This document shows positions 42,567-61,366 of a stretch of DNA of 64,000 nt, piece after piece (the stretch's first letter is position 1; every line of letters begins with the position of its first letter). This DNA comes from a virus. Under the pieces are notes generated by a model, which made no database searches, was not told where the DNA came from, and worked only from the letters and a program-made list of their open reading frames with translations. A program made the translations under genes and the position numbers. The stretch is taken from positions 22,118-86,117 of IMG/VR virus record IMGVR_UViG_3300030333_003061; one strand, given 5' to 3'.

Positions 42567-42947
42567 ATGACTTGGTTTGAAACAATTAAAAAATCCAAAG
42601 TGGATTTATTTATAGAAAGATATTTACAATTCAATGCTGATGTTAGAGGTCTTCATGGAACAGTAAAAAACCCTGAAGGATTTTTACCAAATCATGTTGT
42701 TACTGCTAATGAAGATAATGTAAATGATAGAATTAGAGAAGTAATTAAAAATTATAAGTCTATTCTTAAATTGGGAACAAGAGGACAAACTATTGGAGAT
42801 GCTAATTATGATAAGTCAAAGCCTATCGGGTATCAAGTTAAAATTACACCGGAAGAAAGAAAACAATATGAAGAATTTATACAAGATTTAGAAGATTTGA
42901 TTAAAACAGAATCTAAGTATGATAATTGGAAAAAGGAGAATGAATGA
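42567..42947 (+). CDS. MxW-tagged hypothetical protein
   Basis: MTWFETIK. Confidence 0.6.
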   Translation: MTWFETIKKSKVDLFIERYLQFNADVRGLHGTVKNPEGFLPNHVVTANEDNVNDRIREVIKNYKSILKLGTRGQTIGDANYDKSKPIGYQVKITPEERKQYEEFIQDLEDLIKTESKYDNWKKENE

Positions 42948-44388
42948 TATGACTGAATTAGAAAATCTTAATTTTGCTCACCAAATGGATATGGAGTTAT
43001 CTAAGAATTCATTTCCTTATTTCTTTAAAAATGTATTAGGTATGATGTATCCTAAATATATGGAAGAGTGGTTAAATACAATGGAAACTACAGATAGAAC
43101 AGTAATTGTTTGTAGTCGTGACCACGGAAAATCTGTATTTATGCATTCATGGGTTGTTTGGAATTTAGTATTCCAAGAGCCACCATTTCAAATGCTATAT
43201 ATTTCATCTAACCAAAAGCAGACATTAGTTCACATGAGAGAAATAGATAGAATGTTTAATATTCCTCAATTAAAGAAATTCAGACCATCAAGAGGATGGG
43301 CTATTGGTAACATTACATTAACTAATGGTAACTCTGTTCTTGAAAGGTCAGTAGGTTCTCAGATTCGTGGTCTTCACCCTCAAGAAATTATCATTGATGA
43401 CCCTCTAAAAGAGTTCAGTTTAGTAGGTATTCAAAGAGTCACAGATTGGTTCTTTGGTGATATGATTCCAACACTTCACCATACTGCTTCATTAAGAATG
43501 ATAGGAACACCATTTACTTATACTGACATTTTCTCACAATTAGAAGAAAATCAAGCATATACTGTAAGGAAATATCCATGTTTAGATTCAATGAATGAAC
43601 CACTATGGCCAGAAAGATGGAATTATGAAGCACTAATGCAAAGAAAAGCAGAAATTGGCTCTTTAAAGTTTACAAGAGAATATTTATGCATACCTGTTTC
43701 TACAGGAACTGCGTTATTTTCTCAAGACCATCTATTAAATGCTAAAAATGAACATGCTATGCTTAAATTGGGTCATAGAAAAGAAAAAGGATATAGATAT
43801 TATGTTGGCGTTGACCCTGCAATTTCTACAGATGGAGATTACAATGTAATAATGGTATTAGAGGTAGATGATAACCAAAATAAAACAATTGTTCATGTGG
43901 ATAGAGCAAAAAATGTGCAATTTAGAGAAAATATTGATAAATTACGGCTAATTGGTCAAATATTCCAACCAGAGGTAGTATTATATGAAACAAATACTTT
44001 CGCAAAAGCCTTTACACAGGAATTACGCTCAGTTTCGGACTTAAATGTTAGAGATTTCAACACAACTAGAAGAAAAAAGCAAGAAATTATCCTAAATCTA
44101 CAAATGAACTTTGAAAACGGTAAAATTCATCTCCCTTATGCTGATAATAATAGTAAAAAGATGACTAATGCTTTAATTGAAGAACTTTCGATGTTCTCCA
44201 TCACAGAATCCGGCAAGTTTGAAGGAGTGGGTGCGCATGATGATTTGGTTATGGGTCTTGCTTTAGCAAATGCAGCCTCACAGACTCCAACAGAAGCATT
44301 TATGCTCCTTGACGACATGGAGATATTTGATGCTCCACAGTCGCCTCAAATCGGGCTTCCGCAGGGTATTATGGGGCTGAATTTTTAA
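42940..44388 (+). CDS. terL: terminase large subunit
   Basis: Walker A SRDHGKS, Walker B IIIDD, motif III IGTP, RNase H-like YVGVDPA...HDDLV. Confidence 0.92.
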   Translation: MNDMTELENLNFAHQMDMELSKNSFPYFFKNVLGMMYPKYMEEWLNTMETTDRTVIVCSRDHGKSVFMHSWVVWNLVFQEPPFQMLYISSNQKQTLVHMREIDRMFNIPQLKKFRPSRGWAIGNITLTNGNSVLERSVGSQIRGLHPQEIIIDDPLKEFSLVGIQRVTDWFFGDMIPTLHHTASLRMIGTPFTYTDIFSQLEENQAYTVRKYPCLDSMNEPLWPERWNYEALMQRKAEIGSLKFTREYLCIPVSTGTALFSQDHLLNAKNEHAMLKLGHRKEKGYRYYVGVDPAISTDGDYNVIMVLEVDDNQNKTIVHVDRAKNVQFRENIDKLRLIGQIFQPEVVLYETNTFAKAFTQELRSVSDLNVRDFNTTRRKKQEIILNLQMNFENGKIHLPYADNNSKKMTNALIEELSMFSITESGKFEGVGAHDDLVMGLALANAASQTPTEAFMLLDDMEIFDAPQSPQIGLPQGIMGLNF

Positions 44389-45778: not shown

Positions 45779-47428
45779 ATGGTAGAAGAAAAAAGGACAT
45801 TTTCATTAGGAAACTTGTTTAGAAGACAAACTCCTAAACCAAAGGATAAAGAAGTATTTAATCCTGGTATTCAGGAAAAGAATAATGCTTATATGATTAC
45901 ATCGCCTATATTATATCATGTAGCACAACAATCAGTAATCGTAAGAACATGCACAACTCAATTAAAGAATGAAATCTTTAGAAGAGGATATACATGGGAA
46001 GAAAAGTTTGTTCAGAAGTGTAAAGATTGTGGTGCAGAACATGATTCTCCAGTAGAAGAATGTAAAGACTGTAGTTCTAGAAACTTAGTTAAACCTGATA
46101 AAAAACAACTTAAGTATGCTCATAAATTTTTAGATGGATATGTAAATAAATCAGAACAAATGTTTATTGATGTCTTAAAAGAATTAGAAGACGATTTGAA
46201 TATAATGGATGATGCATATATCATATTAGTTAAAGAATATTTCTTAGATGCTAATGGCGATATTAGAATGCATAGGATTAAAGAAATGTATAGGGGCGAC
46301 CCTGTAACTATGGCTTTATACACAGATGAAGATGGAACCAAAGGAACTTCTGGATTTACTTGTATTAGACACAGAAATATGATTTCTGAAGAAGACGGTA
46401 ATTCTTGTGAATATTGTGGTGAAAAACTATATCCAGTTTATTATGTTAATAGAGCACATGGAGAGGAACAATATTATTTGCAAGGAGAAGTATTACACTT
46501 TAGTAAATATAATCCAAGTAGGCTTTATGGATTATCTCCTGTATTGACATTATGGAATCATATTACTACTTTAATTGCCATGGAAAATTATGTAAATTCT
46601 TCATATTCTAAGGCTAGAATGCCTAGAGGATTATTAGCAGTTCAAACTAGAAATATTGATTCCATGAAATCCTTTTGGCGTGGAGTCAAAGAAAAGATGG
46701 AACAAGACCCTCATTTCATACCTGTTATGGGAATAGAGGCAGAAAACGGTAAAGGTTCTATTGAATGGATTAAGTTCTTAGATAGTCTAAAAGAGATGGA
46801 TTATATTTCTGTTAAAGACGACCTTAGAGATAGAATATCAGGTTTTTATGGTGTTAGTAAAGTATTCATGTCAGACAATTCTGCTAGTGGTGGTTTGAAT
46901 AATGAAGGTATGCAGATATTGGTGACTAATAGAGCAGTTGAGATGGCTCAAACAATATGGAATAATTATGTATTTCCATTCATTACTAAAGAGTTTGGTG
47001 TTACTGATTGGGAACTTAAATTACCACCATCAGAAGAAGAAGATGAATTATTTAGAATTAGATTAAGAGAATTAGAAGTTCAAGTTGCTGCTTCAATTAA
47101 GAATTTAGGATTTGAAGTAGAAATGGATGATGAAGGGAGATTTTCTTATCATAAGCCTCCACCTGAACCTCAAGGAAAACCTAAAGGTGAAGAAGAACAA
47201 ATTGAGCGTGACCCCTATGCTGGAACAAATATAGACCAACAACATTTAGGTGAAATGATGGAACAAGGAAATAGACCAACACAAGAAGAAGCGGGAGCAC
47301 CTGCAAAAGTAAAAGCAACAAGGAATAAACCAAGTTCAAGCACAGGGCCAGATAAGAGATTTACCGGATTACCAGCAGAAGCAGGTAATCAAAATGTAGA
47401 TAAAAGAACGGAGAGAAGAGTAGGATGA
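45779..47428 (+). CDS. portal protein
   Basis: Position after TerL; HFSKY...YGLSP, ARMPRGLL and ISGFYGV portal-like motifs; Zn-ribbon insertions. Confidence 0.85.
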   Translation: MVEEKRTFSLGNLFRRQTPKPKDKEVFNPGIQEKNNAYMITSPILYHVAQQSVIVRTCTTQLKNEIFRRGYTWEEKFVQKCKDCGAEHDSPVEECKDCSSRNLVKPDKKQLKYAHKFLDGYVNKSEQMFIDVLKELEDDLNIMDDAYIILVKEYFLDANGDIRMHRIKEMYRGDPVTMALYTDEDGTKGTSGFTCIRHRNMISEEDGNSCEYCGEKLYPVYYVNRAHGEEQYYLQGEVLHFSKYNPSRLYGLSPVLTLWNHITTLIAMENYVNSSYSKARMPRGLLAVQTRNIDSMKSFWRGVKEKMEQDPHFIPVMGIEAENGKGSIEWIKFLDSLKEMDYISVKDDLRDRISGFYGVSKVFMSDNSASGGLNNEGMQILVTNRAVEMAQTIWNNYVFPFITKEFGVTDWELKLPPSEEEDELFRIRLRELEVQVAASIKNLGFEVEMDDEGRFSYHKPPPEPQGKPKGEEEQIERDPYAGTNIDQQHLGEMMEQGNRPTQEEAGAPAKVKATRNKPSSSTGPDKRFTGLPAEAGNQNVDKRTERRVG

Positions 47429-50427: not shown

Positions 50428-52944
50428 ATGGTTGAAACCGGAGTCTTTGTTGAGAAGAAAACAGGTGCTATGGCGAAGCGTGTCCTTGATTTTTATGAGG
50501 ATGTTCGCTATAAATATCTATCTGCTTTAGAGGACAAGAAAGAATACGGTAATGACTGGAAAAAGTCAATTAAGAAGATTAGAGAAGACTTTGATGGACT
50601 TGGAGATTTCAGCGCAGAAATGAAAAAATACCTTGATGAAGACAATGTATTCAATGATGAAGTTAATAATCCTGAATCGAATGCTGCTGAAAAATTATAT
50701 AATTCAATAAAAAGAATGCGCTTTAATTCAGATGAAATTAATGACCCCTTCGCTAAACAAATGGGAGATAAGGTTGTTGAAACACTTGTAAAGAATCCTT
50801 CTGTTTATGCTATGTTCATCCACTACGCTCTACGCGCACACGCGCACAGCATTAAAGAAGAAGCATGGAAAGCCCACGATTTGAAGCCGGATGAGATTAC
50901 ACAAGGGGCTAAAGGTTTAGACCTCAAATTAGAAGATATACCTCTTTATATTACTGAACACTATGGCGACAATGCAGATACTACTAGAGTTAAAGGTAAG
51001 TTTAATGGAGCATTAAAATTATTAGAAAAAGTATACATGGAAGAAAATACAAAAGATAATTGGGATGCGCTTTTAGCATTAGATATATCTAAGTCTGAAG
51101 ATGAGGATGATGATAAAGAAGAAAAATCAGAAATAGATTTTATTGTTCCTAATAAACCAATGTATAGAATATTTGAAATAGACGACATGAAAGAATTAAA
51201 AGGTTTTAGTGGAGAATACTTAGTTCAAGAAAAATTTGATGGTATTAGAATACAAATTCATAAGTCTGATAAGAAAGTTAAAATTTACACATATAATGAG
51301 AAAGACATAACTAATAAATGTAAGGATATTGTCGAAAAGGTAGAACAAAAAAGATTTGGCGATATGATATTAGATGCTGAATTAATTTTGTATGATGGCG
51401 ATGAACCTTTACATAGAGCAGATACAATAGCACATCTGTTTAAGGATAAATATAAAGATGCTACATTAAAGGCAAGAATTTTTGATATAATGAATCATGA
51501 TGGAAAAGACCTTACTGATTCTCCATTAAGAGAAAGAATAAATATTCTATTCTATCAGTTATCTCCTGGTTCATCTGATTTATTTAATTTCCCTTCAAAG
51601 AAAAACTCTAGGATTGCAGATTCATTAAGTGAAATAGAAAAATACGCTAAAGATATAATGGAATCTAAAACATCAGAAGGAGTAGTAATAAAGGACATAG
51701 AATCAACATACTATCTAGGTAATAAAAAGAATCCTAAGTGGGTTAAATGGAAGAAGTTCGTAGACTTAGATGTAATTGTATTAGATAAGAAAAAGACAAA
51801 ATCAAATCTTTATTCATATACTGTTGGTGTTGGCCCTCTTAGTGGTGAAGAAAGTAGGGAACACAATGGAACAGAATTTGAAGGAAAAACATATTTACCT
51901 GTAGGTAAAGCCCTTAACACTAAAGAGGTTGTTAGTATCGGTTCAATCATTAGAGTTAAAGTAGACGAAGTGAGAAGAAAAGGAACTGGATATAGTCTTT
52001 ATTCTGCAAAGGTAATTGAAATACCTGAAGTAGAAACACCAGAGAAACTTATTACTTTAGAATTATTATCAAAAGAAGGAAGAAAGTCTCTTAAGTATGA
52101 TGTTCAGGATGCTTTAACTAAATATACTATAACAGATGGAATTCATGGTGAAGCAGATATTATAATGAAATCAGATTATGAAGGATTTACTATCTATGGG
52201 TTTGAAGGAGATTCTTTAATGGAGAAAAATGCTTTAGCAGATATTGATTTATGGAAAGAACAATTAACGGAAATGATGAAATCTCATACATCTGATGCAA
52301 GAGTTGCAGTTAAAAACTTTTTAAGAAAAGAAGGAAAACCAATGGAAGTAAAAGACATATTTGAATTTATGTCTAAAGATAAACCAGAATTAGTAGAAAA
52401 ATTATGGGAAGGCAAAATGAATAAATTTACAAAATGGATGGATGATTATGATGATTTTATTAGAGTATCAGCAACTACATATAAAGATAATGAATTAAAA
52501 ATAATTAAAGACGATGAACCATCAGAAAAAGAAGGAAAATATAGATTATATGTTAGAAAAGATAATAACATAGAATTACTCATTAATTACAAAGGCAAAT
52601 CAATGGCATGGATAATTGATATTGACGACACAGAAGATATTTATAACTTATTTGGAAAAGCCGGTAAGTTTCCTGCTCAAGTCGCAGAAAAGAGTCAACC
52701 TGATAAATTATTAGATAAAGGAAATATAATATTGGGTGTCCAAAAGCATGGTTATCACGAATATAAAATAGACGGAGACAAATTTAAGACTAGACTTCAC
52801 TTTAGAGTTGTTCCTATCAAAGACGAAGATAAATGGATAGTATGGACAGGATTTAAACAGAAGATGCTAGATTCAAAAGAAGACAAAGGAATATGGGATA
52901 TTGCAGAAGACAGGCATAAAAAGTTAGCCATGCAAATCGCTTAA
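50428..52944 (+). CDS. second ATP-dependent DNA ligase-domain protein within the head module
   Basis: QEKFDGIRIQ, LDAE, IFDI, EGVVIKD, WVKWKK, an OB fold, plus extra N- and C-terminal domains. Confidence 0.85.
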   Translation: MVETGVFVEKKTGAMAKRVLDFYEDVRYKYLSALEDKKEYGNDWKKSIKKIREDFDGLGDFSAEMKKYLDEDNVFNDEVNNPESNAAEKLYNSIKRMRFNSDEINDPFAKQMGDKVVETLVKNPSVYAMFIHYALRAHAHSIKEEAWKAHDLKPDEITQGAKGLDLKLEDIPLYITEHYGDNADTTRVKGKFNGALKLLEKVYMEENTKDNWDALLALDISKSEDEDDDKEEKSEIDFIVPNKPMYRIFEIDDMKELKGFSGEYLVQEKFDGIRIQIHKSDKKVKIYTYNEKDITNKCKDIVEKVEQKRFGDMILDAELILYDGDEPLHRADTIAHLFKDKYKDATLKARIFDIMNHDGKDLTDSPLRERINILFYQLSPGSSDLFNFPSKKNSRIADSLSEIEKYAKDIMESKTSEGVVIKDIESTYYLGNKKNPKWVKWKKFVDLDVIVLDKKKTKSNLYSYTVGVGPLSGEESREHNGTEFEGKTYLPVGKALNTKEVVSIGSIIRVKVDEVRRKGTGYSLYSAKVIEIPEVETPEKLITLELLSKEGRKSLKYDVQDALTKYTITDGIHGEADIIMKSDYEGFTIYGFEGDSLMEKNALADIDLWKEQLTEMMKSHTSDARVAVKNFLRKEGKPMEVKDIFEFMSKDKPELVEKLWEGKMNKFTKWMDDYDDFIRVSATTYKDNELKIIKDDEPSEKEGKYRLYVRKDNNIELLINYKGKSMAWIIDIDDTEDIYNLFGKAGKFPAQVAEKSQPDKLLDKGNIILGVQKHGYHEYKIDGDKFKTRLHFRVVPIKDEDKWIVWTGFKQKMLDSKEDKGIWDIAEDRHKKLAMQIA

Positions 52945-52983: not shown

Positions 52984-54192
52984 GTGTCCGAATTAGGATT
53001 AGTGAAAAGTGATACTAATGGTGACTTTGATATATTAAAATCAGATGAACTAATAATTGGTGGATATGCTTCTATTGAAATTGTAGATAAACAAAATGAC
53101 CTTATTACTCTTAGTGCATTAAATGAAGCAGTTAAGAAATATATGGAAGTAAAGAAATATAGAAATGTAATGTCAAATCATTCAAATGTTCAAGTCGGAG
53201 ATGTTATAGAAAAATATAGAGATAAAAATGGAACGCTTCATAAAACACAAGTAGATGATGTAGGATTTTATGTTGTAATTAAATTAAGAGACGACATTGA
53301 AAAAGCAAAAGAAATTTCTAGAGGAATTAGAAAAGGAACATTACGCTCATTTAGTATAGGTGGTCAAGCACTATCAAAAAGAAAGAAAACTAGCCCTGAT
53401 ATTGGCGAGTATAATGAAATAGATAAATTAGAACTCCATGAAGTCACAATTTGTGAAAAAGGAATAAACCCTGAAGCGAAATTTGACATTCTGAAGGAGG
53501 ATAACGAAATGACTGAGAGATTGGAAAAAGCGTTAGAGGAACTTAACGACCTTATGAAGGAAGTTAATGAACTTAAGAAAGAAGAAGGCACAGACCCTGA
53601 TTTGTCTGGTAGTGAAGAACTAATGGAAGAATCAATGGATGATGCTAGCGTAGAAGCAATGGATAATGATGAAGAAGAGTCGTCAGACGATGAATCATAT
53701 GAAGCCATGAATAACTACGATGATGAACAGAAAATGAGAACAGGGCCAGAAGGCCCAGTAGAACATGGTTATGGCGAAGATTTGGCTGCAGGAAAGAAAC
53801 ACTCTCAAGCAGGCCAAATAGGTCAATTATACAAAGAATGGCAGAACGAAGATTTTGCTACTCTTGACCTATCTACTGAAAATGTAGAAAAAGCCTATGA
53901 AGCGTTTAAGGCTGAACAATTAGAAAAGATGGCCTATGATACTTTGAAGACCAAGTTTGCTGAAAGGTTTGCTAATGAGCAATCTGTCCGAAAGGCTGAT
54001 GTTGCACGAAGCGAATATGACGCTAAGAACGAAGTTGAATCTCTAAAGGAAGAATTTGCTTCCTTAAGAAAGAGCCTAACAGAACAATCAAATGAGATTG
54101 TTAAGGCTCAAACAATTGAGGTTCCTGACTTTGATGTTAGTGAAATGTCTTGGACAGACATTCATAATGTCATTAGCCAGTTTGAGGAGTGA
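52984..54192 (+). CDS. HK97-type prohead protease fused to scaffold domain
   Basis: IGGYASIEIVDKQND, H in SNH, FSIGG, LHEVTICEKGINPEA; acidic coiled-coil C-terminus. Confidence 0.88.
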   Translation: MSELGLVKSDTNGDFDILKSDELIIGGYASIEIVDKQNDLITLSALNEAVKKYMEVKKYRNVMSNHSNVQVGDVIEKYRDKNGTLHKTQVDDVGFYVVIKLRDDIEKAKEISRGIRKGTLRSFSIGGQALSKRKKTSPDIGEYNEIDKLELHEVTICEKGINPEAKFDILKEDNEMTERLEKALEELNDLMKEVNELKKEEGTDPDLSGSEELMEESMDDASVEAMDNDEEESSDDESYEAMNNYDDEQKMRTGPEGPVEHGYGEDLAAGKKHSQAGQIGQLYKEWQNEDFATLDLSTENVEKAYEAFKAEQLEKMAYDTLKTKFAERFANEQSVRKADVARSEYDAKNEVESLKEEFASLRKSLTEQSNEIVKAQTIEVPDFDVSEMSWTDIHNVISQFEE

Positions 54193-54197
54193 TTAAG

Positions 54198-55574
54198 ATG
54201 AGTAATTACATTAAGACAATGAAAGACTTAGAATCCGCTACCTACGGAGTTCGTGGGGGAAGCGGTAATGCTTTGTTAAAGAGCGCAGGTGTTGTTTCGT
54301 GGGGTTCTTCGGGAACAGGACACGATACCGATGTTGCTGGTTTATCCGGTGCTTCGGGCCTTGCTGACTTGTATAACAGGGCTTATGGACAAAAAGTATG
54401 GTCAATGCTAAACCAAGAGGTTAATGCTTTGGCTATGTTAGCAAAGAGGCCATATACCACTAGTGGATGGCGAGTGCTAAAGAAGAGAGCAGAAGGTGGT
54501 TCAGGTTCAACCTTCGATGTTTCATTAAGTGGAGCAGCAACCGCAAGAGGCGTTGATGCACCATCTGCTGATAATATCGGTGGTGTTGCTGAGAACGCAT
54601 CTTTAGGAACAGGTAATGATATTCCGGCCATTACGCCAGAATACACTAAGTTATTTACCAGCCCAAAGACTGTGGCTCATTTGTTTGAGTTCTCAGAATT
54701 GGCTCTTGAAATGGCTAAGATTGATGACGGCGTAGGTGATTTACGCGCATTAATCCGTGAAGACATGGGTAAGCATCATGCAGAAGTTCAGAATAAGATG
54801 CTTCTTATGCCATTAGAGGCATATGACCAAGTTATCACAGGTAGCGATAACCGCGTTAATATCAACAAGAATTACACTTCATTGTTGAAGGTTGTTGCTT
54901 CAAGTCAAGAAATGGAAGCAATGGTTGATGCGTCAATGTTGGATGATTCAACATCTAGCACAGGCGGTCTAACTGCTACTCTTAGCACTATTTATGGTGC
55001 AACAGACAGGCAATTAGTCGGTAATGCGTATAACCCATCTTTCCTTGATGCTGAAGTAGATTTCGGTGATGGATATGCAGCAGGTAATGCTCGCGTATTA
55101 ACTTTAACCATCATTAATGATATGCTACGAAGGCTAAGAGAAAACGGTGGTTCACCAAAGGTTATCTTAACTGGATATGATACTATTCAGCATCTAGGTG
55201 ACCTATTGCAAGCCCAAGAAAGATTTATGGATAGAAAAGAGGTAATTCCTACACATGGCGGTGTTCGTGGTGTAAAGGGTAGAGAAGTCGGTTTTAGAGT
55301 CGCTACCTATTACGACATACCAATCATTCCTTGTAAGGATATGCCTAAGACTGGAAATGGTTCTAACAAGTTAAGTGATATTCTTATCCTTGATACAGAC
55401 CATCTATGGTTAAGTGTGTTGAAGCCAACTCAATACTTTGAGGATGGAATTGACCATGGAAACCCATTTGGTGTTGGAACTCTAGGTAATCAAGCAATGT
55501 ATCGAACAATTGCTGAAACAGGTTGTTCCTTCTTTAAGGGGCAGGGTAAGATTACCAACATTACCAGCGCATGA
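54198..55574 (+). CDS. major capsid protein (HK97 fold)
   Basis: Follows the protease; ~458 aa; PKVILTGYDT, TYYDIPIIP, ILDTDHL motifs; strong RBS and highly expressed codon style. Confidence 0.85.
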   Translation: MSNYIKTMKDLESATYGVRGGSGNALLKSAGVVSWGSSGTGHDTDVAGLSGASGLADLYNRAYGQKVWSMLNQEVNALAMLAKRPYTTSGWRVLKKRAEGGSGSTFDVSLSGAATARGVDAPSADNIGGVAENASLGTGNDIPAITPEYTKLFTSPKTVAHLFEFSELALEMAKIDDGVGDLRALIREDMGKHHAEVQNKMLLMPLEAYDQVITGSDNRVNINKNYTSLLKVVASSQEMEAMVDASMLDDSTSSTGGLTATLSTIYGATDRQLVGNAYNPSFLDAEVDFGDGYAAGNARVLTLTIINDMLRRLRENGGSPKVILTGYDTIQHLGDLLQAQERFMDRKEVIPTHGGVRGVKGREVGFRVATYYDIPIIPCKDMPKTGNGSNKLSDILILDTDHLWLSVLKPTQYFEDGIDHGNPFGVGTLGNQAMYRTIAETGCSFFKGQGKITNITSA

Positions 55575-55593
55575 AGTTAAAAGGTGATAAAAG

Positions 55594-55950
55594 ATGGCTT
55601 TAGCATATACAGTAACAACACTTGCAGACCATAAAGGCATTACTGCTCCAAAAGCAGTTGGTGACGAATATGTGGTTGATGCGGTTATAGATGTAACATC
55701 ACATGTAGCGGCGGGTGCAGTAATACCTGCTTCTCAGTTTGGTTTATCTACAATCCATGCAGCGTGTATTACAGGACATGAAGGAGCAAATCATCGTTAT
55801 CCTAATATCGAAACTACTAGTGGCGGGGTTTATGAGTCGTCAACATCATTAGCATTAATGTTCACATCATTAGATGGAACAAATGCAACAATCGCTAATG
55901 ATGGCGACCCAACCTGTGCTGTTAGAGTCCGTGTTTGGGGCAACCTTTGA
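55594..55950 (+). CDS. putative capsid decoration/cement protein
   Basis: Small beta-rich ORF directly after MCP and before a terminator hairpin. Confidence 0.5.
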   Translation: MALAYTVTTLADHKGITAPKAVGDEYVVDAVIDVTSHVAAGAVIPASQFGLSTIHAACITGHEGANHRYPNIETTSGGVYESSTSLALMFTSLDGTNATIANDGDPTCAVRVRVWGNL

Positions 55951-56426: not shown

Positions 56427-56738
56427 ATGTCAGGCGGTTGTAATAATACAGGTGTTTTAACTGTTTCAGGTTCTGGAACGGCATCAACACAAGCCATTAC
56501 TGGTCGAATTAGAATACAATCTATTAAGGTCAGTAATGATGCAGCAGTGGATAAAACAGTAACTTTCTATGATGGAACAGCAAATACTGCAACAAAGATA
56601 CATGAGGCTCATGTCGGTGCAGTAAATGAAAACTATGATTTTGATTTTCATGGTTCAATTGCTATTAATGGGGTATTCGTTGAAGTTACAGGTAGCGGAA
56701 GCAATAGTGGGGTAAGTTTCTCAATTCAATATTTCTGA
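56427..56738 (+). CDS. small beta-rich putative virion protein
   Basis: G/S/T-rich beta pattern. Confidence 0.55.
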   Translation: MSGGCNNTGVLTVSGSGTASTQAITGRIRIQSIKVSNDAAVDKTVTFYDGTANTATKIHEAHVGAVNENYDFDFHGSIAINGVFVEVTGSGSNSGVSFSIQYF

Positions 56739-56746
56739 GGGATATA

Positions 56747-57148
56747 ATGCCAGCACTAGAAAAAGACACAAAACTCGTAATGACGATATTATTCGTTGGT
56801 GCGATTAGCGGAACCAATGTTTACTTTTACGGTAAATATGGAAGCATGATTGCTTTTGGTGAATACGCCCATGCGTTAATATTTGGGCTAATGACCATAG
56901 GAGCAATCTTAGCAATGAAAGCCATATTTGATTTGGCTTTGAATGATAGAATAGAAATGCTTCTATTAGATAGAAGAATTTCTGCTTATTGGGCTAAAAA
57001 GCAAAGAGATGAACAACAAAGAGAAAAGATTAGACAAAGTATGTATCAGAACACTCAAGTTCAATCAGGATATATGCCTGTTCCTCCTATGCCTGTTCAG
57101 CCAGAAGAACCTAGAGTTCCAACATCATTTTTAGCACAAATAGAGTAG
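56747..57148 (+). CDS. membrane protein (2 TM helices)
   Basis: LVMTILFVGAISG and ALIFGLMTIGAILAM, followed by a coiled coil and a Pro-rich tail. Confidence 0.65.
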   Translation: MPALEKDTKLVMTILFVGAISGTNVYFYGKYGSMIAFGEYAHALIFGLMTIGAILAMKAIFDLALNDRIEMLLLDRRISAYWAKKQRDEQQREKIRQSMYQNTQVQSGYMPVPPMPVQPEEPRVPTSFLAQIE

Positions 57149-57156
57149 TGAGATAA

Positions 57157-57384
57157 ATGCTTGAAGCAATAACAATGGGCTTTGATGAAACAACATTAGC
57201 CTATGATTTGCAAAGAGCGCATTCTGCTGATATTTGGTTTTTAAGAGCCAGATACTTCTTTTGGGGAACAGTATCTACAATTGTTGGTTTTTTCGTAGGA
57301 CATGCTTTACCCTCCTTTGGGATAAATGTTTATCAAGAAGCATGGGAGGGCTTCATATCAATTTGGCATCATCTTGTGGGGTGA
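57157..57384 (+). CDS. small membrane protein
   Basis: FFWGTVSTIVGFFVG hydrophobic segment. Confidence 0.6.
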   Translation: MLEAITMGFDETTLAYDLQRAHSADIWFLRARYFFWGTVSTIVGFFVGHALPSFGINVYQEAWEGFISIWHHLVG

Positions 57385-57388
57385 ATAA

Positions 57389-58057
57389 ATGTCATTAATG
57401 ACTGGTTTCGTCATAATAATGATAGAAAAAGCAGGAGCATTATGGAGAAGAATTCATGCAATTCCTTTTGGTGTATATGGGGCTACACAAGTAGGAAAAA
57501 CAACATTACATCATCAAATGAGAACAAGAGGAGAAGTTCCAGATATTAAAGAAAGAACAGTAGGTCGAGGCAGGGCGACTAGAAAATCAATTAAAATAGA
57601 TGGAGATTTACATACAATTAAAACATCAGATATTGGAGGAGAAACTCTTTATTGGGGCGAATGGCTTAAAGATATGAGAACAAGAAAAGTCAAATATATT
57701 ATTTTTATGATTGATGATAGACACATGGATAAACATTATGATATAGAACAACAATTATGTTGGAGTTTTTTAGTCGATACAATATGTTCCCCTTATTGGG
57801 ATGCAATAAATAGAAAGCATAGAAAAAAAGCACATGATTATCCCCTTGCTGTAGGTTTATGGGCAAATAAATTTGATTTATGGAAAGACAAATATCCTTA
57901 TGATGATATACAAAAACACCCAATATTTGAATCATTCAAAGACGGAATGGCTAAATTAAATGATAGAGGAATCCCTTGTTTCAAATATATAGTAAGTGCA
58001 AAATCAGATTCAGAAATGGTATATAGAGGAATAGCAACAATGGTGGATGATTATTAG
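57389..58057 (+). CDS. Ras-superfamily (Arf/Rab-like) small GTPase
   Basis: G1 GATQVGKT, G2 T (ERTVG), G3 DIGG, G4 NKFD, G5 SAK; hydrophobic N-terminal helix. Confidence 0.85.
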   Translation: MSLMTGFVIIMIEKAGALWRRIHAIPFGVYGATQVGKTTLHHQMRTRGEVPDIKERTVGRGRATRKSIKIDGDLHTIKTSDIGGETLYWGEWLKDMRTRKVKYIIFMIDDRHMDKHYDIEQQLCWSFLVDTICSPYWDAINRKHRKKAHDYPLAVGLWANKFDLWKDKYPYDDIQKHPIFESFKDGMAKLNDRGIPCFKYIVSAKSDSEMVYRGIATMVDDY

Positions 58058-58133
58058 GTGATAAAATGAATACGACAAGATTTTTAGAAGAAAATACATC
58101 AATAATAGATTTTTATTTACGGAGGAATTATTT

Positions 58134-58805
58134 ATGAGTATGCAATATAATCCTCCTTCATTAATTGGTGCTACTAATGCTACTGCTACTAATCCATTTT
58201 TACCACCAATTAAATTTGCTCGCGCTGCTGGCGGAGTAATGAATTATGATTATAAGAGTAACAAGCCAAAGAAACAAGTAAAAGAAATGATTTCTATTCT
58301 ATGGCCAGAAAAGAAAAGATTCCTTAAGATTCCATATGGGTTTAAATTCAATACAAGAGATAGATGTGTTGTTTGTGGAACTCATAAAAGATGGGATGCT
58401 TCTGACCCAATGAGGCCAACAATACCACTTCATAAAGTTAGAAAGGGTTATCCAATGAGAGGAACTTATTGTGATAAACATGCAGCATTACATAGACAAT
58501 ATGAAATGTTAGAACAACAAATAATAGCCGATGAACATGGCTTAGAATTTTCTTCATACATTCCTAAACCTAAAGTGCCTAAAATGTTGCAATCAGCACC
58601 GCTAACTTCATTAAGGCAATCCGATATCGAGGCATTGAGTGAGGTTGGCTGGACAATAAGACCCCCACAAATGCAATCAGAAACATTAGAAGATGAAATG
58701 TTTAGATTAACAATTGAAACTCAAGCAATTAATAGAAGAATATTAAAACTAATTACAGATGGTGCAGAAGTAATTCCTCAAAAAATCGAAGAGGAGGTAG
58801 AATAA
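58134..58805 (+). CDS. hypothetical protein with Zn finger
   Basis: CVVCG...YCDKH. Confidence 0.65.
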   Translation: MSMQYNPPSLIGATNATATNPFLPPIKFARAAGGVMNYDYKSNKPKKQVKEMISILWPEKKRFLKIPYGFKFNTRDRCVVCGTHKRWDASDPMRPTIPLHKVRKGYPMRGTYCDKHAALHRQYEMLEQQIIADEHGLEFSSYIPKPKVPKMLQSAPLTSLRQSDIEALSEVGWTIRPPQMQSETLEDEMFRLTIETQAINRRILKLITDGAEVIPQKIEEEVE

Positions 58806-58806
58806 T

Positions 58807-59514
58807 ATGGGTTTATTTGGAACAAGTAATAGAGCGTTATCTAATCAGATAACATCTCAAGGACAATCAGATTTTAAGGTAATGAATAATTTATTAACAT
58901 TACAAGATAATCATGTTGAAGAATTCTTTCAATATCATGGCGAAGCATTTTTATCATCTTTTGAAAAATTATTTGAAGATGTAATAGAAAGAGTAGTAAG
59001 CCAAATGCTAACTAAACTAAAATTTGTTAGTAATTCTAATGGAGAAATTTCTGTTCATTCAGATGCTCTTAGAGAATATGAAACAATTACTGCTGAAAAT
59101 ATCCAATTAGATTTACAAACTCTTTTAGCCTCTGCATTAAATACAGAAGTTATTATGCAAAGAAAAATGGCTAAACAGCAATATCTTGAGGCACAAGGTT
59201 TTTCTACATCACAAATGCCTCAAACACAACAAGTGCAACAACAACCAAATATGGCTAATCCTCAAGGTCTAGCCCCATCACAGATTCAAGGAAGTAATGC
59301 GGGGGTTGCTGCTAATAACATGATGATGCAACAACAAGCAGCATTCAATAATACTAGTGGCTATCCTGTTCCGCCGTCAGGTTATGACCAAATGAACAAT
59401 CCATATTGGATTGACCCAATGACCGGACAACCAACATATACCCCACCTGCTAGCGGTTTGGGCTTAGGTAATGCTATTAGTAAAGGATTGGCCTGGGCTT
59501 CTTGGTTAGCATGA
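58807..59514 (+). CDS. Gln-rich hypothetical protein
   Basis: MGLFG start, Q/N/P low-complexity region, amphipathic C-terminus. Confidence 0.65.
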   Translation: MGLFGTSNRALSNQITSQGQSDFKVMNNLLTLQDNHVEEFFQYHGEAFLSSFEKLFEDVIERVVSQMLTKLKFVSNSNGEISVHSDALREYETITAENIQLDLQTLLASALNTEVIMQRKMAKQQYLEAQGFSTSQMPQTQQVQQQPNMANPQGLAPSQIQGSNAGVAANNMMMQQQAAFNNTSGYPVPPSGYDQMNNPYWIDPMTGQPTYTPPASGLGLGNAISKGLAWASWLA

Positions 59515-59524
59515 GTGGAGTAAT

Positions 59525-61366
59525 ATGGACATTAAAATACCTAATCAATTTAAGGTGCATAATCGCACCTATAATTTAGGTGAAGACATAGAACTCACTA
59601 GGTCTAATTTAGAGGGAAATCCCTCTAATCATGCACTATTTAAGTATATGTTAAAATATCTTATGGCTCCAATGGATAATAAATTGGATAAAGTTTCTAA
59701 TAGTATGAAAATGCTATTAAAACCTGAAGTCCTAGAGAGGGCTTCTGGTTATACCCATGATATGGATATAGATGCAGAAGAATATGAAAAGCATATTAAA
59801 TATGCATGGGAAGAATTAAGCGAATCTGTCATGTATTCATCTGAGTCAGCACTTGATTCAGAAGGCAAAGAAGCAGAAAAAGATGGAGAAAAAATAACTA
59901 TTGAAGGAGGATTGTTATATATTTTATCACAGCAAGGATGGCTACAATCTCAAGAAAAAGAATTAATTGATAAAATAATAAGGGCAATGCCTGAAAGAGG
60001 AAAAAGAGAACCATTTAAAGAAATACTAGATACTGTAGATGATTCAGGAAAGCCCTCTATTGGTAGAATAGGACAACAAAAAATAATGGGATACAGAACA
60101 GGAGAAAGAGCATCTAAATTAATGAATGCAGCAAACTATAAGCAATTATTCTATCCTGTAATAGATTTATTAAAAACAGTAAAGGTTGAAGAAAAACCAA
60201 ATGAAAAGATTGGTAAGATAGATAATAAGAAAATCATAGAATACAAACATTATCCAAAACCAAGACAAATAGATGGAAATAAAATATTAGATTCATCAGA
60301 TATTATTATTCATTTCGATAATGCATTTTCTGCTCTTAGAAAAGAATACGGTATGTCAATGAAAATGGAAAGACTTACATCAGATGATGAAATAGAAAAT
60401 ATGTTAAATGGTGAAATATTAAAATATGATTGGAACCTTGATGAATCAAACTTATTAGATGCAGAAGGATTACCAACAAAACAATATGCCATTGGTGAAT
60501 TAAACCCTGATGAACAATTAACTGAATGGAAAAGGAGAAATTGGGATTATGATTCAGAAGGGCTTTCTAATGAAGAAATATATTATGCTAGAAGAATTAA
60601 TTTAAAATTAGAATATGATAAACAATTAGATAAAGGAGAAATAGAAAAAGAATTATTATTTAATTTATATTTATATAGAATAATTAGTAAAGATAAAATG
60701 AAACAATATATAGATTTTGGAAAATATGGAGACCAAGGCTTTGATTTTACAGAACCTGAATATAAAGTAATGGGAAAGGTTTTAGAAGATAAAGAAAACA
60801 GAACAGGCATTGAACAAAAATTACATCAACAATATACAATTCATGGAATATCCAAAATTAATGAAAGGGAAGCAAAAAGATTAAGAGGAGAAAATAAGAG
60901 TCTTATTCAAGGATTACCAGATAGTCAATTTTCTGATAGGAAACTCTTTGATAATATATCAGACCCTGATATTTCAAAAATAGATTTAAGAAATGCAGAA
61001 AATGTAGGTGAGTTTAGAGAAGAATTACATAAAGCAATTACTCCTGGAACAGAAGGAAAATTAAAATTTTCAATAGGAATAATGGCTACAAAATCTCATG
61101 GCGGTCATGTATTATTATCTGTGGAATTTATCCCAAAAGTAAAAGGGCCATATGCTGATTATCACGCAAAAACATTTGCTGAAAGAGGAAAAGAAAAAGT
61201 CATACCTTCAAATTTAAAACCAAGTCAAATAAAAAATCAACCTTCTTTAGCAGCAAGAGGAGGACAAAACTTATGGTATGAAGGCATACCAAATGCATTA
61301 ATGTTTCTATATTATATCAAAAAGCAACTAACAAGATTAAATAAAATGGTGAAGCCTTATGTCTAG
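59525..61366 (+). CDS. hypothetical protein (613 aa)
   Basis: Long ORF in the morphogenesis arm. Confidence 0.7.
   Translation: MDIKIPNQFKVHNRTYNLGEDIELTRSNLEGNPSNHALFKYMLKYLMAPMDNKLDKVSNSMKMLLKPEVLERASGYTHDMDIDAEEYEKHIKYAWEELSESVMYSSESALDSEGKEAEKDGEKITIEGGLLYILSQQGWLQSQEKELIDKIIRAMPERGKREPFKEILDTVDDSGKPSIGRIGQQKIMGYRTGERASKLMNAANYKQLFYPVIDLLKTVKVEEKPNEKIGKIDNKKIIEYKHYPKPRQIDGNKILDSSDIIIHFDNAFSALRKEYGMSMKMERLTSDDEIENMLNGEILKYDWNLDESNLLDAEGLPTKQYAIGELNPDEQLTEWKRRNWDYDSEGLSNEEIYYARRINLKLEYDKQLDKGEIEKELLFNLYLYRIISKDKMKQYIDFGKYGDQGFDFTEPEYKVMGKVLEDKENRTGIEQKLHQQYTIHGISKINEREAKRLRGENKSLIQGLPDSQFSDRKLFDNISDPDISKIDLRNAENVGEFREELHKAITPGTEGKLKFSIGIMATKSHGGHVLLSVEFIPKVKGPYADYHAKTFAERGKEKVIPSNLKPSQIKNQPSLAARGGQNLWYEGIPNALMFLYYIKKQLTRLNKMVKPYV

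Follow-up and report, generated by a model that had tools for sequence, protein, structure and literature searches.

What a Ras-superfamily small GTPase might do for a tailed virus is the question raised by a 64-kb stretch of DNA (the window) from IMG/VR record IMGVR_UViG_3300030333_003061, a sequence of 86,117 bases with a CheckV completeness of 92% that, judged by its genes, is from a magrovirus (order Magrovirales), a tailed virus of the Marine Group II archaea, which are abundant in the ocean. Positions 56747-59514 of the window exactly span five consecutive plus-strand open reading frames (ORFs), from the first start codon to the final stop codon, arranged in the order u2, u1, GTPase, d1, and d2 with gaps of 8, 4, 76, and 1 nt. 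We infer that these five genes, here referred to as the cassette, act late in infection as a GTP-controlled switch at the host membrane, perhaps in egress, and this is regarded as the best reading of the locus; the proposal that they form a GTP-switched membrane remodelling or egress unit organized around a virus-specific Arf-like GTPase is given a little under an even chance of being correct.

Synteny of the neighbouring genes in relatives had been set beforehand as a test by an earlier, sequence-only reading of this locus, and the neighbours proved to be syntenic. In the lineage to which the window belongs (lineage 1), the five-gene order is kept in 80/80 IMG/VR loci, as far as the contigs reach, with u1 found in 80/80 and u2 in 79/80 (44-86% identity). 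The GTPase gene is the most conserved of the region in these loci, with a median identity of 73% versus 64% for the HK97-type major capsid protein (MCP), a ranking that is mildly biased because the loci were selected by GTPase similarity. The 18 contigs picked by MCP alone avoid this selection bias for presence (identities were ranked on the GTPase-picked loci), and an intact GTPase gene, free of internal stops, is found in 18/18. Three further, deeply diverged lineages were reached by following full-length relatives from a HMMER search of 1.84 billion representatives. Lineage 2 (80 loci in genomes of 96-118 kb, with MCPs 42-47% identical to that of the window) repeats the five-slot arrangement and adds one more small membrane protein in a sixth slot, and hhalign comparison of lineages 1 and 2 relates their GTPases (100% probability, E = 6e-39), d1 proteins (97.1%, E = 6.9e-11), and d2 proteins (93.6%, E = 2.2e-7), with all six cross-slot controls below 1%. 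The architecture recurs in lineages 3 and 4, the latter (GC content 44-46%) with an extra acidic protein ahead of the GTPase. u1 has a same-slot counterpart of 69-99 aa in the other three lineages, the u2 architecture of a transmembrane (TM) hairpin, a Y[KR]xxF[QE][DE] motif, and a basic coiled coil is common to all four, and both proteins keep their size, position, topology, and short motifs between lineages.

The genomic neighbourhood of the block differs among the four lineages, and its internal order is constant. The sequence-only reading had placed the block between capsid and neck genes, which is correct for the window lineage, where it lies between capsid-associated genes and a head-tail adaptor-like gene, but not elsewhere: in lineage 2 it stands beside a 2690-aa ORF, approximately 6 kb upstream of the terminase gene and approximately 23 kb from the capsid gene, in one locus of lineage 3 it follows a thermosome-like gene, and other sites are also used. 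These positions bear on the possibility that the cassette serves morphogenesis, as a membrane-bound platform or checkpoint for head assembly, packaging, or head-tail joining. Such a role would suit the location of the block in the window, its proximity to the large terminase gene in lineage 2, and its co-orientation with the structural genes in every lineage seen. It is nevertheless judged unlikely: the block changes neighbourhood between lineages while its internal order stays, and is therefore not bound to any single step of assembly; haloviruses that share homologous head genes do not have the cassette; and tailed-virus assembly in the Caudoviricetes is not known to depend on membranes.

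Outside these viruses, the GTPase was found at 2 loci among 185,579 species genomes, both of them in one metagenome-assembled genome labelled Maricaulis sp. (a bacterium), whose contigs NZMJ01000101.1 and NZMJ01000024.1 are probably mis-binned viral contigs. Because of the synteny across lineages, the differing neighbourhoods, and this near-absence from species genomes, the five genes are, on comparative grounds, one co-inherited, virus-specific unit, under strong purifying conservation, that has been relocated en bloc within the late region. The same conservation data effectively refute the notion of a block with no specific function, whether selfish, decaying, or an annotation artefact, to which next to no probability is assigned: the reading frames are intact in all copies examined, the GTPase motifs are invariant down to 23% identity, and no other gene of the region is as well conserved as that of the GTPase. 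The features of the cassette, and those of the head module that precedes it, are collected in the table.

Table. Coordinates of the cassette, of the motifs within its GTPase, and of the upstream head genes (window positions)
Feature	Position	Strand	Remarks
u2, 133-aa membrane protein	56747-57148	+	Hydrophobic helices 10-28 and 43-61, then basic/coiled segment and Gln/Pro-rich tail
u1, 75-aa small membrane protein	57157-57384	+	Acidic N-terminus, W..R.RY aromatic/basic motif, one hydrophobic segment, Trp-rich C-terminus
Arf-like small GTPase, 222 aa	57389-58057	+	
GTPase N-terminal hydrophobic helix, residues 2-22, putative membrane anchor/insertion helix	57392-57454	+	DSSP on model
G1/P-loop GATQVGKT (G31-T38)	57479-57502	+	G31, G36, K37 invariant in 49 sequences
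Switch I R56-T57, probable G2 Thr and adjacent conserved Arg	57554-57559	+	
G3/switch II start DIGGE (D81-E85)	57629-57643	+	D81, G84 invariant
Polybasic loop NRKHRKKAH, residues 141-149, insert between G3 and G4	57809-57835	+	
G4 NKFD (N160-D163), guanine specificity	57866-57877	+	N160, K161 invariant
G5 SAK (S203-K205)	57995-58003	+	S203, A204 invariant in lineage 1
d1, 223-aa Cys/His protein, C78-x2-C81 ... C113-x2-H116	58134-58805	+	Orphan family
d2, 235-aa Gln-rich protein	58807-59514	+	MGLFG N-terminus, conserved helix-hairpin-helix core ~25-129, Gln/Pro-rich region, Gly-rich hydrophobic C-terminus
Large terminase	42919-44388	+	
Portal	45779-47428	+	
838-aa ORF, ATP-dependent DNA ligase motif KxDG (KFDGIR)	50428-52944	+	Between portal and prohead protease
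Prohead protease	52984-54192	+	
HK97-type capsid protein (MCP)	54189-55574	+	Pfam SU10_MCP match

Judged by its motifs, the central protein of the cassette is a genuine small GTPase of the Ras superfamily, laid out much like Arf/Sar and with a complete nucleotide-binding site. The G1, G3, G4, and G5 set of the Ras superfamily (TRAFAC small GTPases) is present in order; G31, G36, K37, D81, G84, N160, and K161 are invariant across 49 family members with identities down to 23%; and NKxD occurs in every lineage 1 and lineage 2 GTPase scored. In the AlphaFold2 (AF2) model (pLDDT 85.2, pTM 0.84), residues 2-22 form a helix, after which comes a Ras-like core with the six-stranded sheet and five helices of the G-domain fold. 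The G1-G5 motifs and N-terminal hydrophobic helix in an Arf/Sar-like arrangement that the sequence-only reading had described are thus borne out by both the invariance of the motif residues and the predicted helix. The family comprises at least 360 homologues.

Within the superfamily, the affinities of the protein emerge from the family rather than from the single sequence. The window GTPase alone matches Pfam MMR_HSR1 (E = 0.0044) and small_GTP (E = 0.0028), both below cut-off, and a single-sequence search of the Protein Data Bank (PDB) with it returned nothing meaningful. With the family profile, the best PDB match is GerdArfR1 (8OUN; E = 2.6e-10), in an alignment that begins in the N-terminal helix, followed by Arl3, Arl8, and Arf interleaved with KRas and Rab33B; the 8OUN structure comes from the study "Arf family GTPases are present in Asgard archaea" (bioRxiv 10.1101/2024.02.28.582541). 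Pfam Arf is matched by 21/49 family members (E ≤ 0.1), with a best E-value of 1.9e-15 that is the lowest for any family. The closest structural neighbours of the predicted model are Arf, Arl, and Sar proteins, and the model, a single predicted state, resembles GTP-form Arfs. Since the window protein falls below the Pfam Arf cut-off, it is described from its sequence as Arf-like and very divergent, and is not filed as an Arf family member. As in the Arf family (Arf1, Arf6, Arl1, Arl3, Arl8, Sar1, and the Asgard ArfR proteins GerdArfR1, 8OUN/8OUM, and HodArfR1, 8OUK), an N-terminal helix precedes the G domain, and the switch II pattern DxGG(Q/E)...W and the G4 motif NKxD are common to both groups. 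The viral protein differs from Arf, with which it shares approximately 16-22% identity, in having mostly Glu in place of the catalytic Gln (in lineage 1), an Arg before the switch I Thr, a polybasic insert between G3 and G4, a helix that is hydrophobic rather than clearly amphipathic, a tailed-virus gene as its source, and unrelated partners.

The observation in the sequence-only reading that small GTPases are not standard components of tailed viruses also finds support, in that the only other virus-encoded ones encountered among predicted viral structures belong to giant eukaryotic viruses: the viral proteins among the top 50 structural neighbours of the GTPase in BFVD are all Ras, Rab, or Ran proteins of such viruses. 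The giant-virus proteins (for example, the mimivirus Rab 5XC5 and the Ras, Rab, and Ran proteins of Nucleocytoviricota) are likewise virus-encoded members of the Ras superfamily; however, they are close copies of host Rab, Ras, or Ran in viruses that infect eukaryotes, whereas the Arf-like GTPase of the magrovirus, a tailed archaeal virus, lacks close relatives in cells and occurs in a fixed cassette together with membrane proteins.

Several features of the GTPase are relevant to how it might be attached to a membrane and how it might cycle. In its N-terminal helix, G6, F7, and E13 are invariant in lineage 1, and the lineage 2 proteins have an uncharged stretch of approximately 19 residues at the same position. 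The polybasic loop, which has low pLDDT at residues 145-148, contains 4-8 Lys/Arg within 12 residues in all lineages. In switch I, where the GTPases of other lineages carry an extra insert, the R-T pair is kept in 118/119 family members and lineage 1 shows no variation at R56, T57, or G59; the Mg-binding residue is probably T57 and not T64. Switch II follows the pattern DxGG(E/Q)xxYWxxW, with a nearly invariant W92 and a last Trp that aligns with the Arf switch II Trp in the 8OUN alignment. The residue after DxGG, at the position of the catalytic Gln, is Glu in the window and varies across the family, being E in 50 and Q in 3 of 53 lineage 1 sequences, Q in 42, E in 8, and D in 6 of those from lineage 2, and Q, H, E, D, or A in ten other relatives counted. 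The variability of this residue (E, Q, D, H, A) and the invariant Arg next to the switch I Thr suggest that GTP may be hydrolysed slowly or with the help of a partner, as would befit a timer. This arrangement resembles the intrinsic arginine of MglA, and the resemblance is noted as a lead; in a comparison with MglA/MglB-type systems, neither d1 nor d2 gave a Pfam match to Roadblock/LC7, and the AF2 model of d2 (pLDDT 59.6) is of too low a quality for its fold to be judged.

In Pfam, PHROGs, and NCBIfam, the four partner proteins have no match to a functionally characterised family. The sequence-only reading had described them as two membrane proteins, a Zn-finger protein (the Cys/His protein d1), and a Gln-rich protein, and both hydropathy and the alignments agree with this description. 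The Gln/Pro-rich tail of u2 is probably cytoplasmic. The hydrophobic segment of u1 is moderate, lying in the window below the cut-off of 1.5 that was applied on the Kyte-Doolittle scale, and reaching 2.0-2.5 in the lineage 2 counterparts. In d1, 18 sequences from two lineages agree throughout on C78, C113, and H116; a profile search recovered 492 homologues, all of them without Pfam domains and without names that indicate a function, a single weak PHROG match was to a group of unknown function, and in the ESM Atlas only scores below 0.8 were obtained. The start of d2, MGLFGTS (58807-58827), conforms formally to MGxxx[ST], the signature of N-myristoylation signals in eukaryotes; because myristoylation is not known from archaea, it more likely serves as a short membrane-binding N-terminus.

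Small proteins with one or two TM segments and charged cytoplasmic tails in a compact late cassette are likewise typical of phage holin-type lysis systems, and the sequence-only reading went on to suggest that the block replaces a holin/endolysin system. That suggestion is not supported. u1 and u2 have no Pfam, PHROG, or NCBIfam match, holin families included, the same three resources reveal no endolysin or cell-wall hydrolase in the five-gene block, and the magrovirus cassette differs from holin cassettes further in that it always includes a GTPase and two soluble orphan proteins. The presumed hosts, Poseidoniales, are not known to have peptidoglycan. The broader idea of a membrane module fared better, as a membrane-directed role fits u1 and u2, the hydrophobic helix, and the polybasic loop, but nothing in these features favours egress or lysis timing over other membrane tasks. 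The cassette proteins could alternatively be packaged in the virion and act on the membrane of the next host at genome delivery. The block does lie inside the virion gene block in the window lineage, and some phage ejection proteins are small and hydrophobic, as the cassette proteins are; on the other side, a GTP-dependent switch needs cytoplasmic GTP, and no cassette protein has a functional PHROGs match, ejection and pilot proteins included. This explanation is considered very improbable.

A cellular system of similar composition is known. The arvA-arvB-arvC genes of Haloferax encode an Arf-like GTPase with an N-terminal helix, a SepF-like protein, and a Zn-ribbon protein, and ArvA/OapA drives vesicle formation with ArvB/ArvC (PMC10927574). 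This operon (ArvA/ArvB/ArvC or OapA/B/C), which occurs in Haloferax volcanii and in other Euryarchaeota and DPANN (PMC10927574), resembles the viral block in combining an Arf-like GTPase with a Zn-binding protein and a third small protein, and ArvA and the viral GTPase are alike in matching MMR_HSR1 weakly and in having Arf as their best profile match. The viral block differs in its two extra upstream membrane proteins, in its order of GTPase, Cys/His protein, and third protein (arvB usually lies directly after arvA), and in the C-x2-C ... C-x2-H layout of d1, a putative metal site that is unlike the OapC Zn-ribbon. The OapB (PF09846) and OapC (PF09845) models gave no match at E ≤ 1 in five magrovirus genomes; as a control, the same searches give matches in Haloferax and Methanosarcina, with OapB above cut-off in Haloferax volcanii and Methanosarcina acetivorans. 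Because these models find nothing in the five magrovirus genomes, the viral block is not a copy of arvABC, and its origin as a captured arvABC operon is rejected.

The existence of vesiculation-controlling Arf-like GTPases in Euryarchaeota (PMC10927574) also speaks for a different use, in which the cassette would mimic or hijack a host small-GTPase pathway (for vesicles, division, or the envelope) or would act in superinfection exclusion or counter-defence, and a set of membrane proteins with a switch would suit exclusion systems. In protein-language-model features, the nearest named non-viral clusters to the GTPase are Arf-like G-domain clusters labelled bacterial (scores 0.92-0.96) and an Asgard Arf cluster (0.92), which offers a lead on its origin and, as these are prokaryotic Arf-like G proteins, one that is compatible with host mimicry. 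Takeover of or competition with the host is nonetheless held to be quite unlikely. The block is on the structural-gene strand and not with the early and replication genes on the opposite strand, and its universality and very high conservation within lineages would be unusual for accessory competition genes. Kinship to cellular proteins is only distant: the HMMER search gave 56 GTPase matches at E ≤ 0.001, with few full-length relatives (23-37% identity), and no cellular small GTPase was recognized among the 56, in a library that carries no names and in which ArvA would not be distinguishable. A family profile search of a large protein set found only family members among the matches listed, with no cellular outgroup; tblastn with the GTPase gave no match in a phage record collection; halovirus HCTV-1 has no cassette-like genes after its capsid gene; and the sequences P0133 and P0168 have no match in IMG/VR.

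Arf and Sar1, which drive budding in eukaryotes, and ArvA, with its part in haloarchaeal vesicle formation, provide the proposed model for the cassette. Under the preferred reading of GTP-switched membrane remodelling, the cassette would be expressed late, and the GTP-bound GTPase would bind the host cytoplasmic membrane from the inside, its N-terminal helix and basic loop serving as the contacts, and would be positioned or recruited by the tails that u1 and u2 extend into the cytoplasm. d1 and d2 would act as regulator and/or effector of the GTPase, in the manner of a GTPase-activating protein (GAP), a guanine nucleotide exchange factor (GEF), or a coat, and the host membrane would, as infection ends, be locally reshaped or breached, so that virions are released or their release is timed. 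Release is the most attractive output because the egress machinery of archaeal tailed viruses has been stated to be completely uncharacterised (PMC10791045) and because Arf/Sar1 and ArvA deform membranes. A stronger version of this proposal, in which the cassette is a self-contained, GTP-timed egress machine whose GTPase, docked on u1/u2, recruits d2 as a coat-like protein and d1 as a regulator and vesiculates or ruptures the host membrane, is regarded as somewhat unlikely.

A number of observations weigh against reading the cassette as a GTP-switched membrane unit. The window GTPase misses the Pfam Arf (PF00025) and small_GTP cut-offs, and the mean hydrophobic moment of its N-terminal helix, 0.38, was reached by 526/2000 shuffled sequences; since its amphipathicity is no greater than that of the shuffles, the helix is not called amphipathic and could be a hydrophobic anchor just as well as an amphipathic helix. 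The second Cys/His pair of d1 is lost in lineage 4, and neither d1 nor d2 matches any GAP, GEF, coat, OapB, or OapC family. For u1 and u2, profile homology between lineages 1 and 2 is not significant by hhalign (P = 0.011 for u2). Related haloviruses, which also lyse their hosts, lack the GTPase gene, and the cassette is therefore not a general requirement for the egress of archaeal tailed viruses.

The cassette is undescribed in the searchable literature: no paper combining the terms magrovirus and GTPase was found in the literature searched, and no GTPase is mentioned in the main texts of the magrovirus papers checked or in the archaeal tailed-virus taxonomy paper. In the surface ocean, magroviruses reportedly rank with the most abundant viruses (PMC5434244). 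Being universal in the sampled lineages, virus-specific, and built on an Arf-type switch, the cassette is a concrete and clonable candidate for the exit step of archaeal tailed viruses, and because the host is uncultured the first tests must be biochemical or heterologous. It extends Arf-like membrane switches to viruses of Euryarchaeota-type hosts, and so bears on the spread of such machinery before eukaryotes. A GTP-timed egress machine, if it should prove to be one, would constitute a new class of viral release and a working Arf-type remodelling module outside eukaryotes and Asgard archaea.

The assignment of the virus is based on the surroundings of the cassette. Magroviruses have genomes of 65-100 kb and a ligase in the head module, which in groups A and B occupies the same position as in the window (PMC5434244). 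In the window, an ATP-dependent ligase in the head module, an HK97-type MCP near those of haloviruses (24% identity to the capsid proteins of HCTV-1, HVTV-1, and HCTV-5), a genome size in keeping with the group, and a marine metagenome source are all found, and the virus is identified as a magrovirus because its ligase, halovirus-nearest capsid genes, and source fit this description. Its terminase, portal, protease, and ribonucleotide reductase genes likewise agree with the magrovirus groups described there. The plus-strand block that carries the head, portal, and terminase genes, and on the same strand the cassette, starts approximately 24 kb into the window; a ribonucleotide reductase gene lies in the minus-strand block, the early and replication genes being on the strand opposite to the structural genes.

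Some of the neighbouring genes deserve mention in their own right. The 2690-aa ORF directly upstream of the lineage 2 cassette (L153:34-8106, in a 118-kb magrovirus) is CxxC-rich and has only a sub-threshold SHOCT match in Pfam. Directly upstream of the lineage 3 cassette, L173:4250-5782 encodes a thermosome-like chaperonin of 511 aa, as judged from its sequence and from the report of thermosome genes in some magrovirus groups (PMC5434244). The acidic insert of lineage 4 (L257:8229-8996 and L266:8217-8996) is a protein of 256-260 aa with a long poly-Asp/Glu tail, encoded between the small membrane protein and the GTPase. A scan of the window for sigma-70 promoters and terminators found fewer promoter-like sites than in shuffled sequences, the model being a bacterial one that is not applicable to an archaeal virus. 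In two marine metatranscriptome runs from one sample, contigs match window positions 54200-55820 and 56538-56692, several with 0-2 mismatches; these regions correspond to the capsid gene and two small downstream ORFs, and carry-over of DNA into the RNA libraries is possible. None of the RNA contigs placed on the window falls on the cassette, which counts neither for nor against its expression. Directly 3' of the cassette, a 613-aa ORF (59525-61366) is the least conserved of the region, being detected in 18/80 related loci at 23-71% identity, and appears to be a variable site that separates the cassette from the adaptor-like gene.

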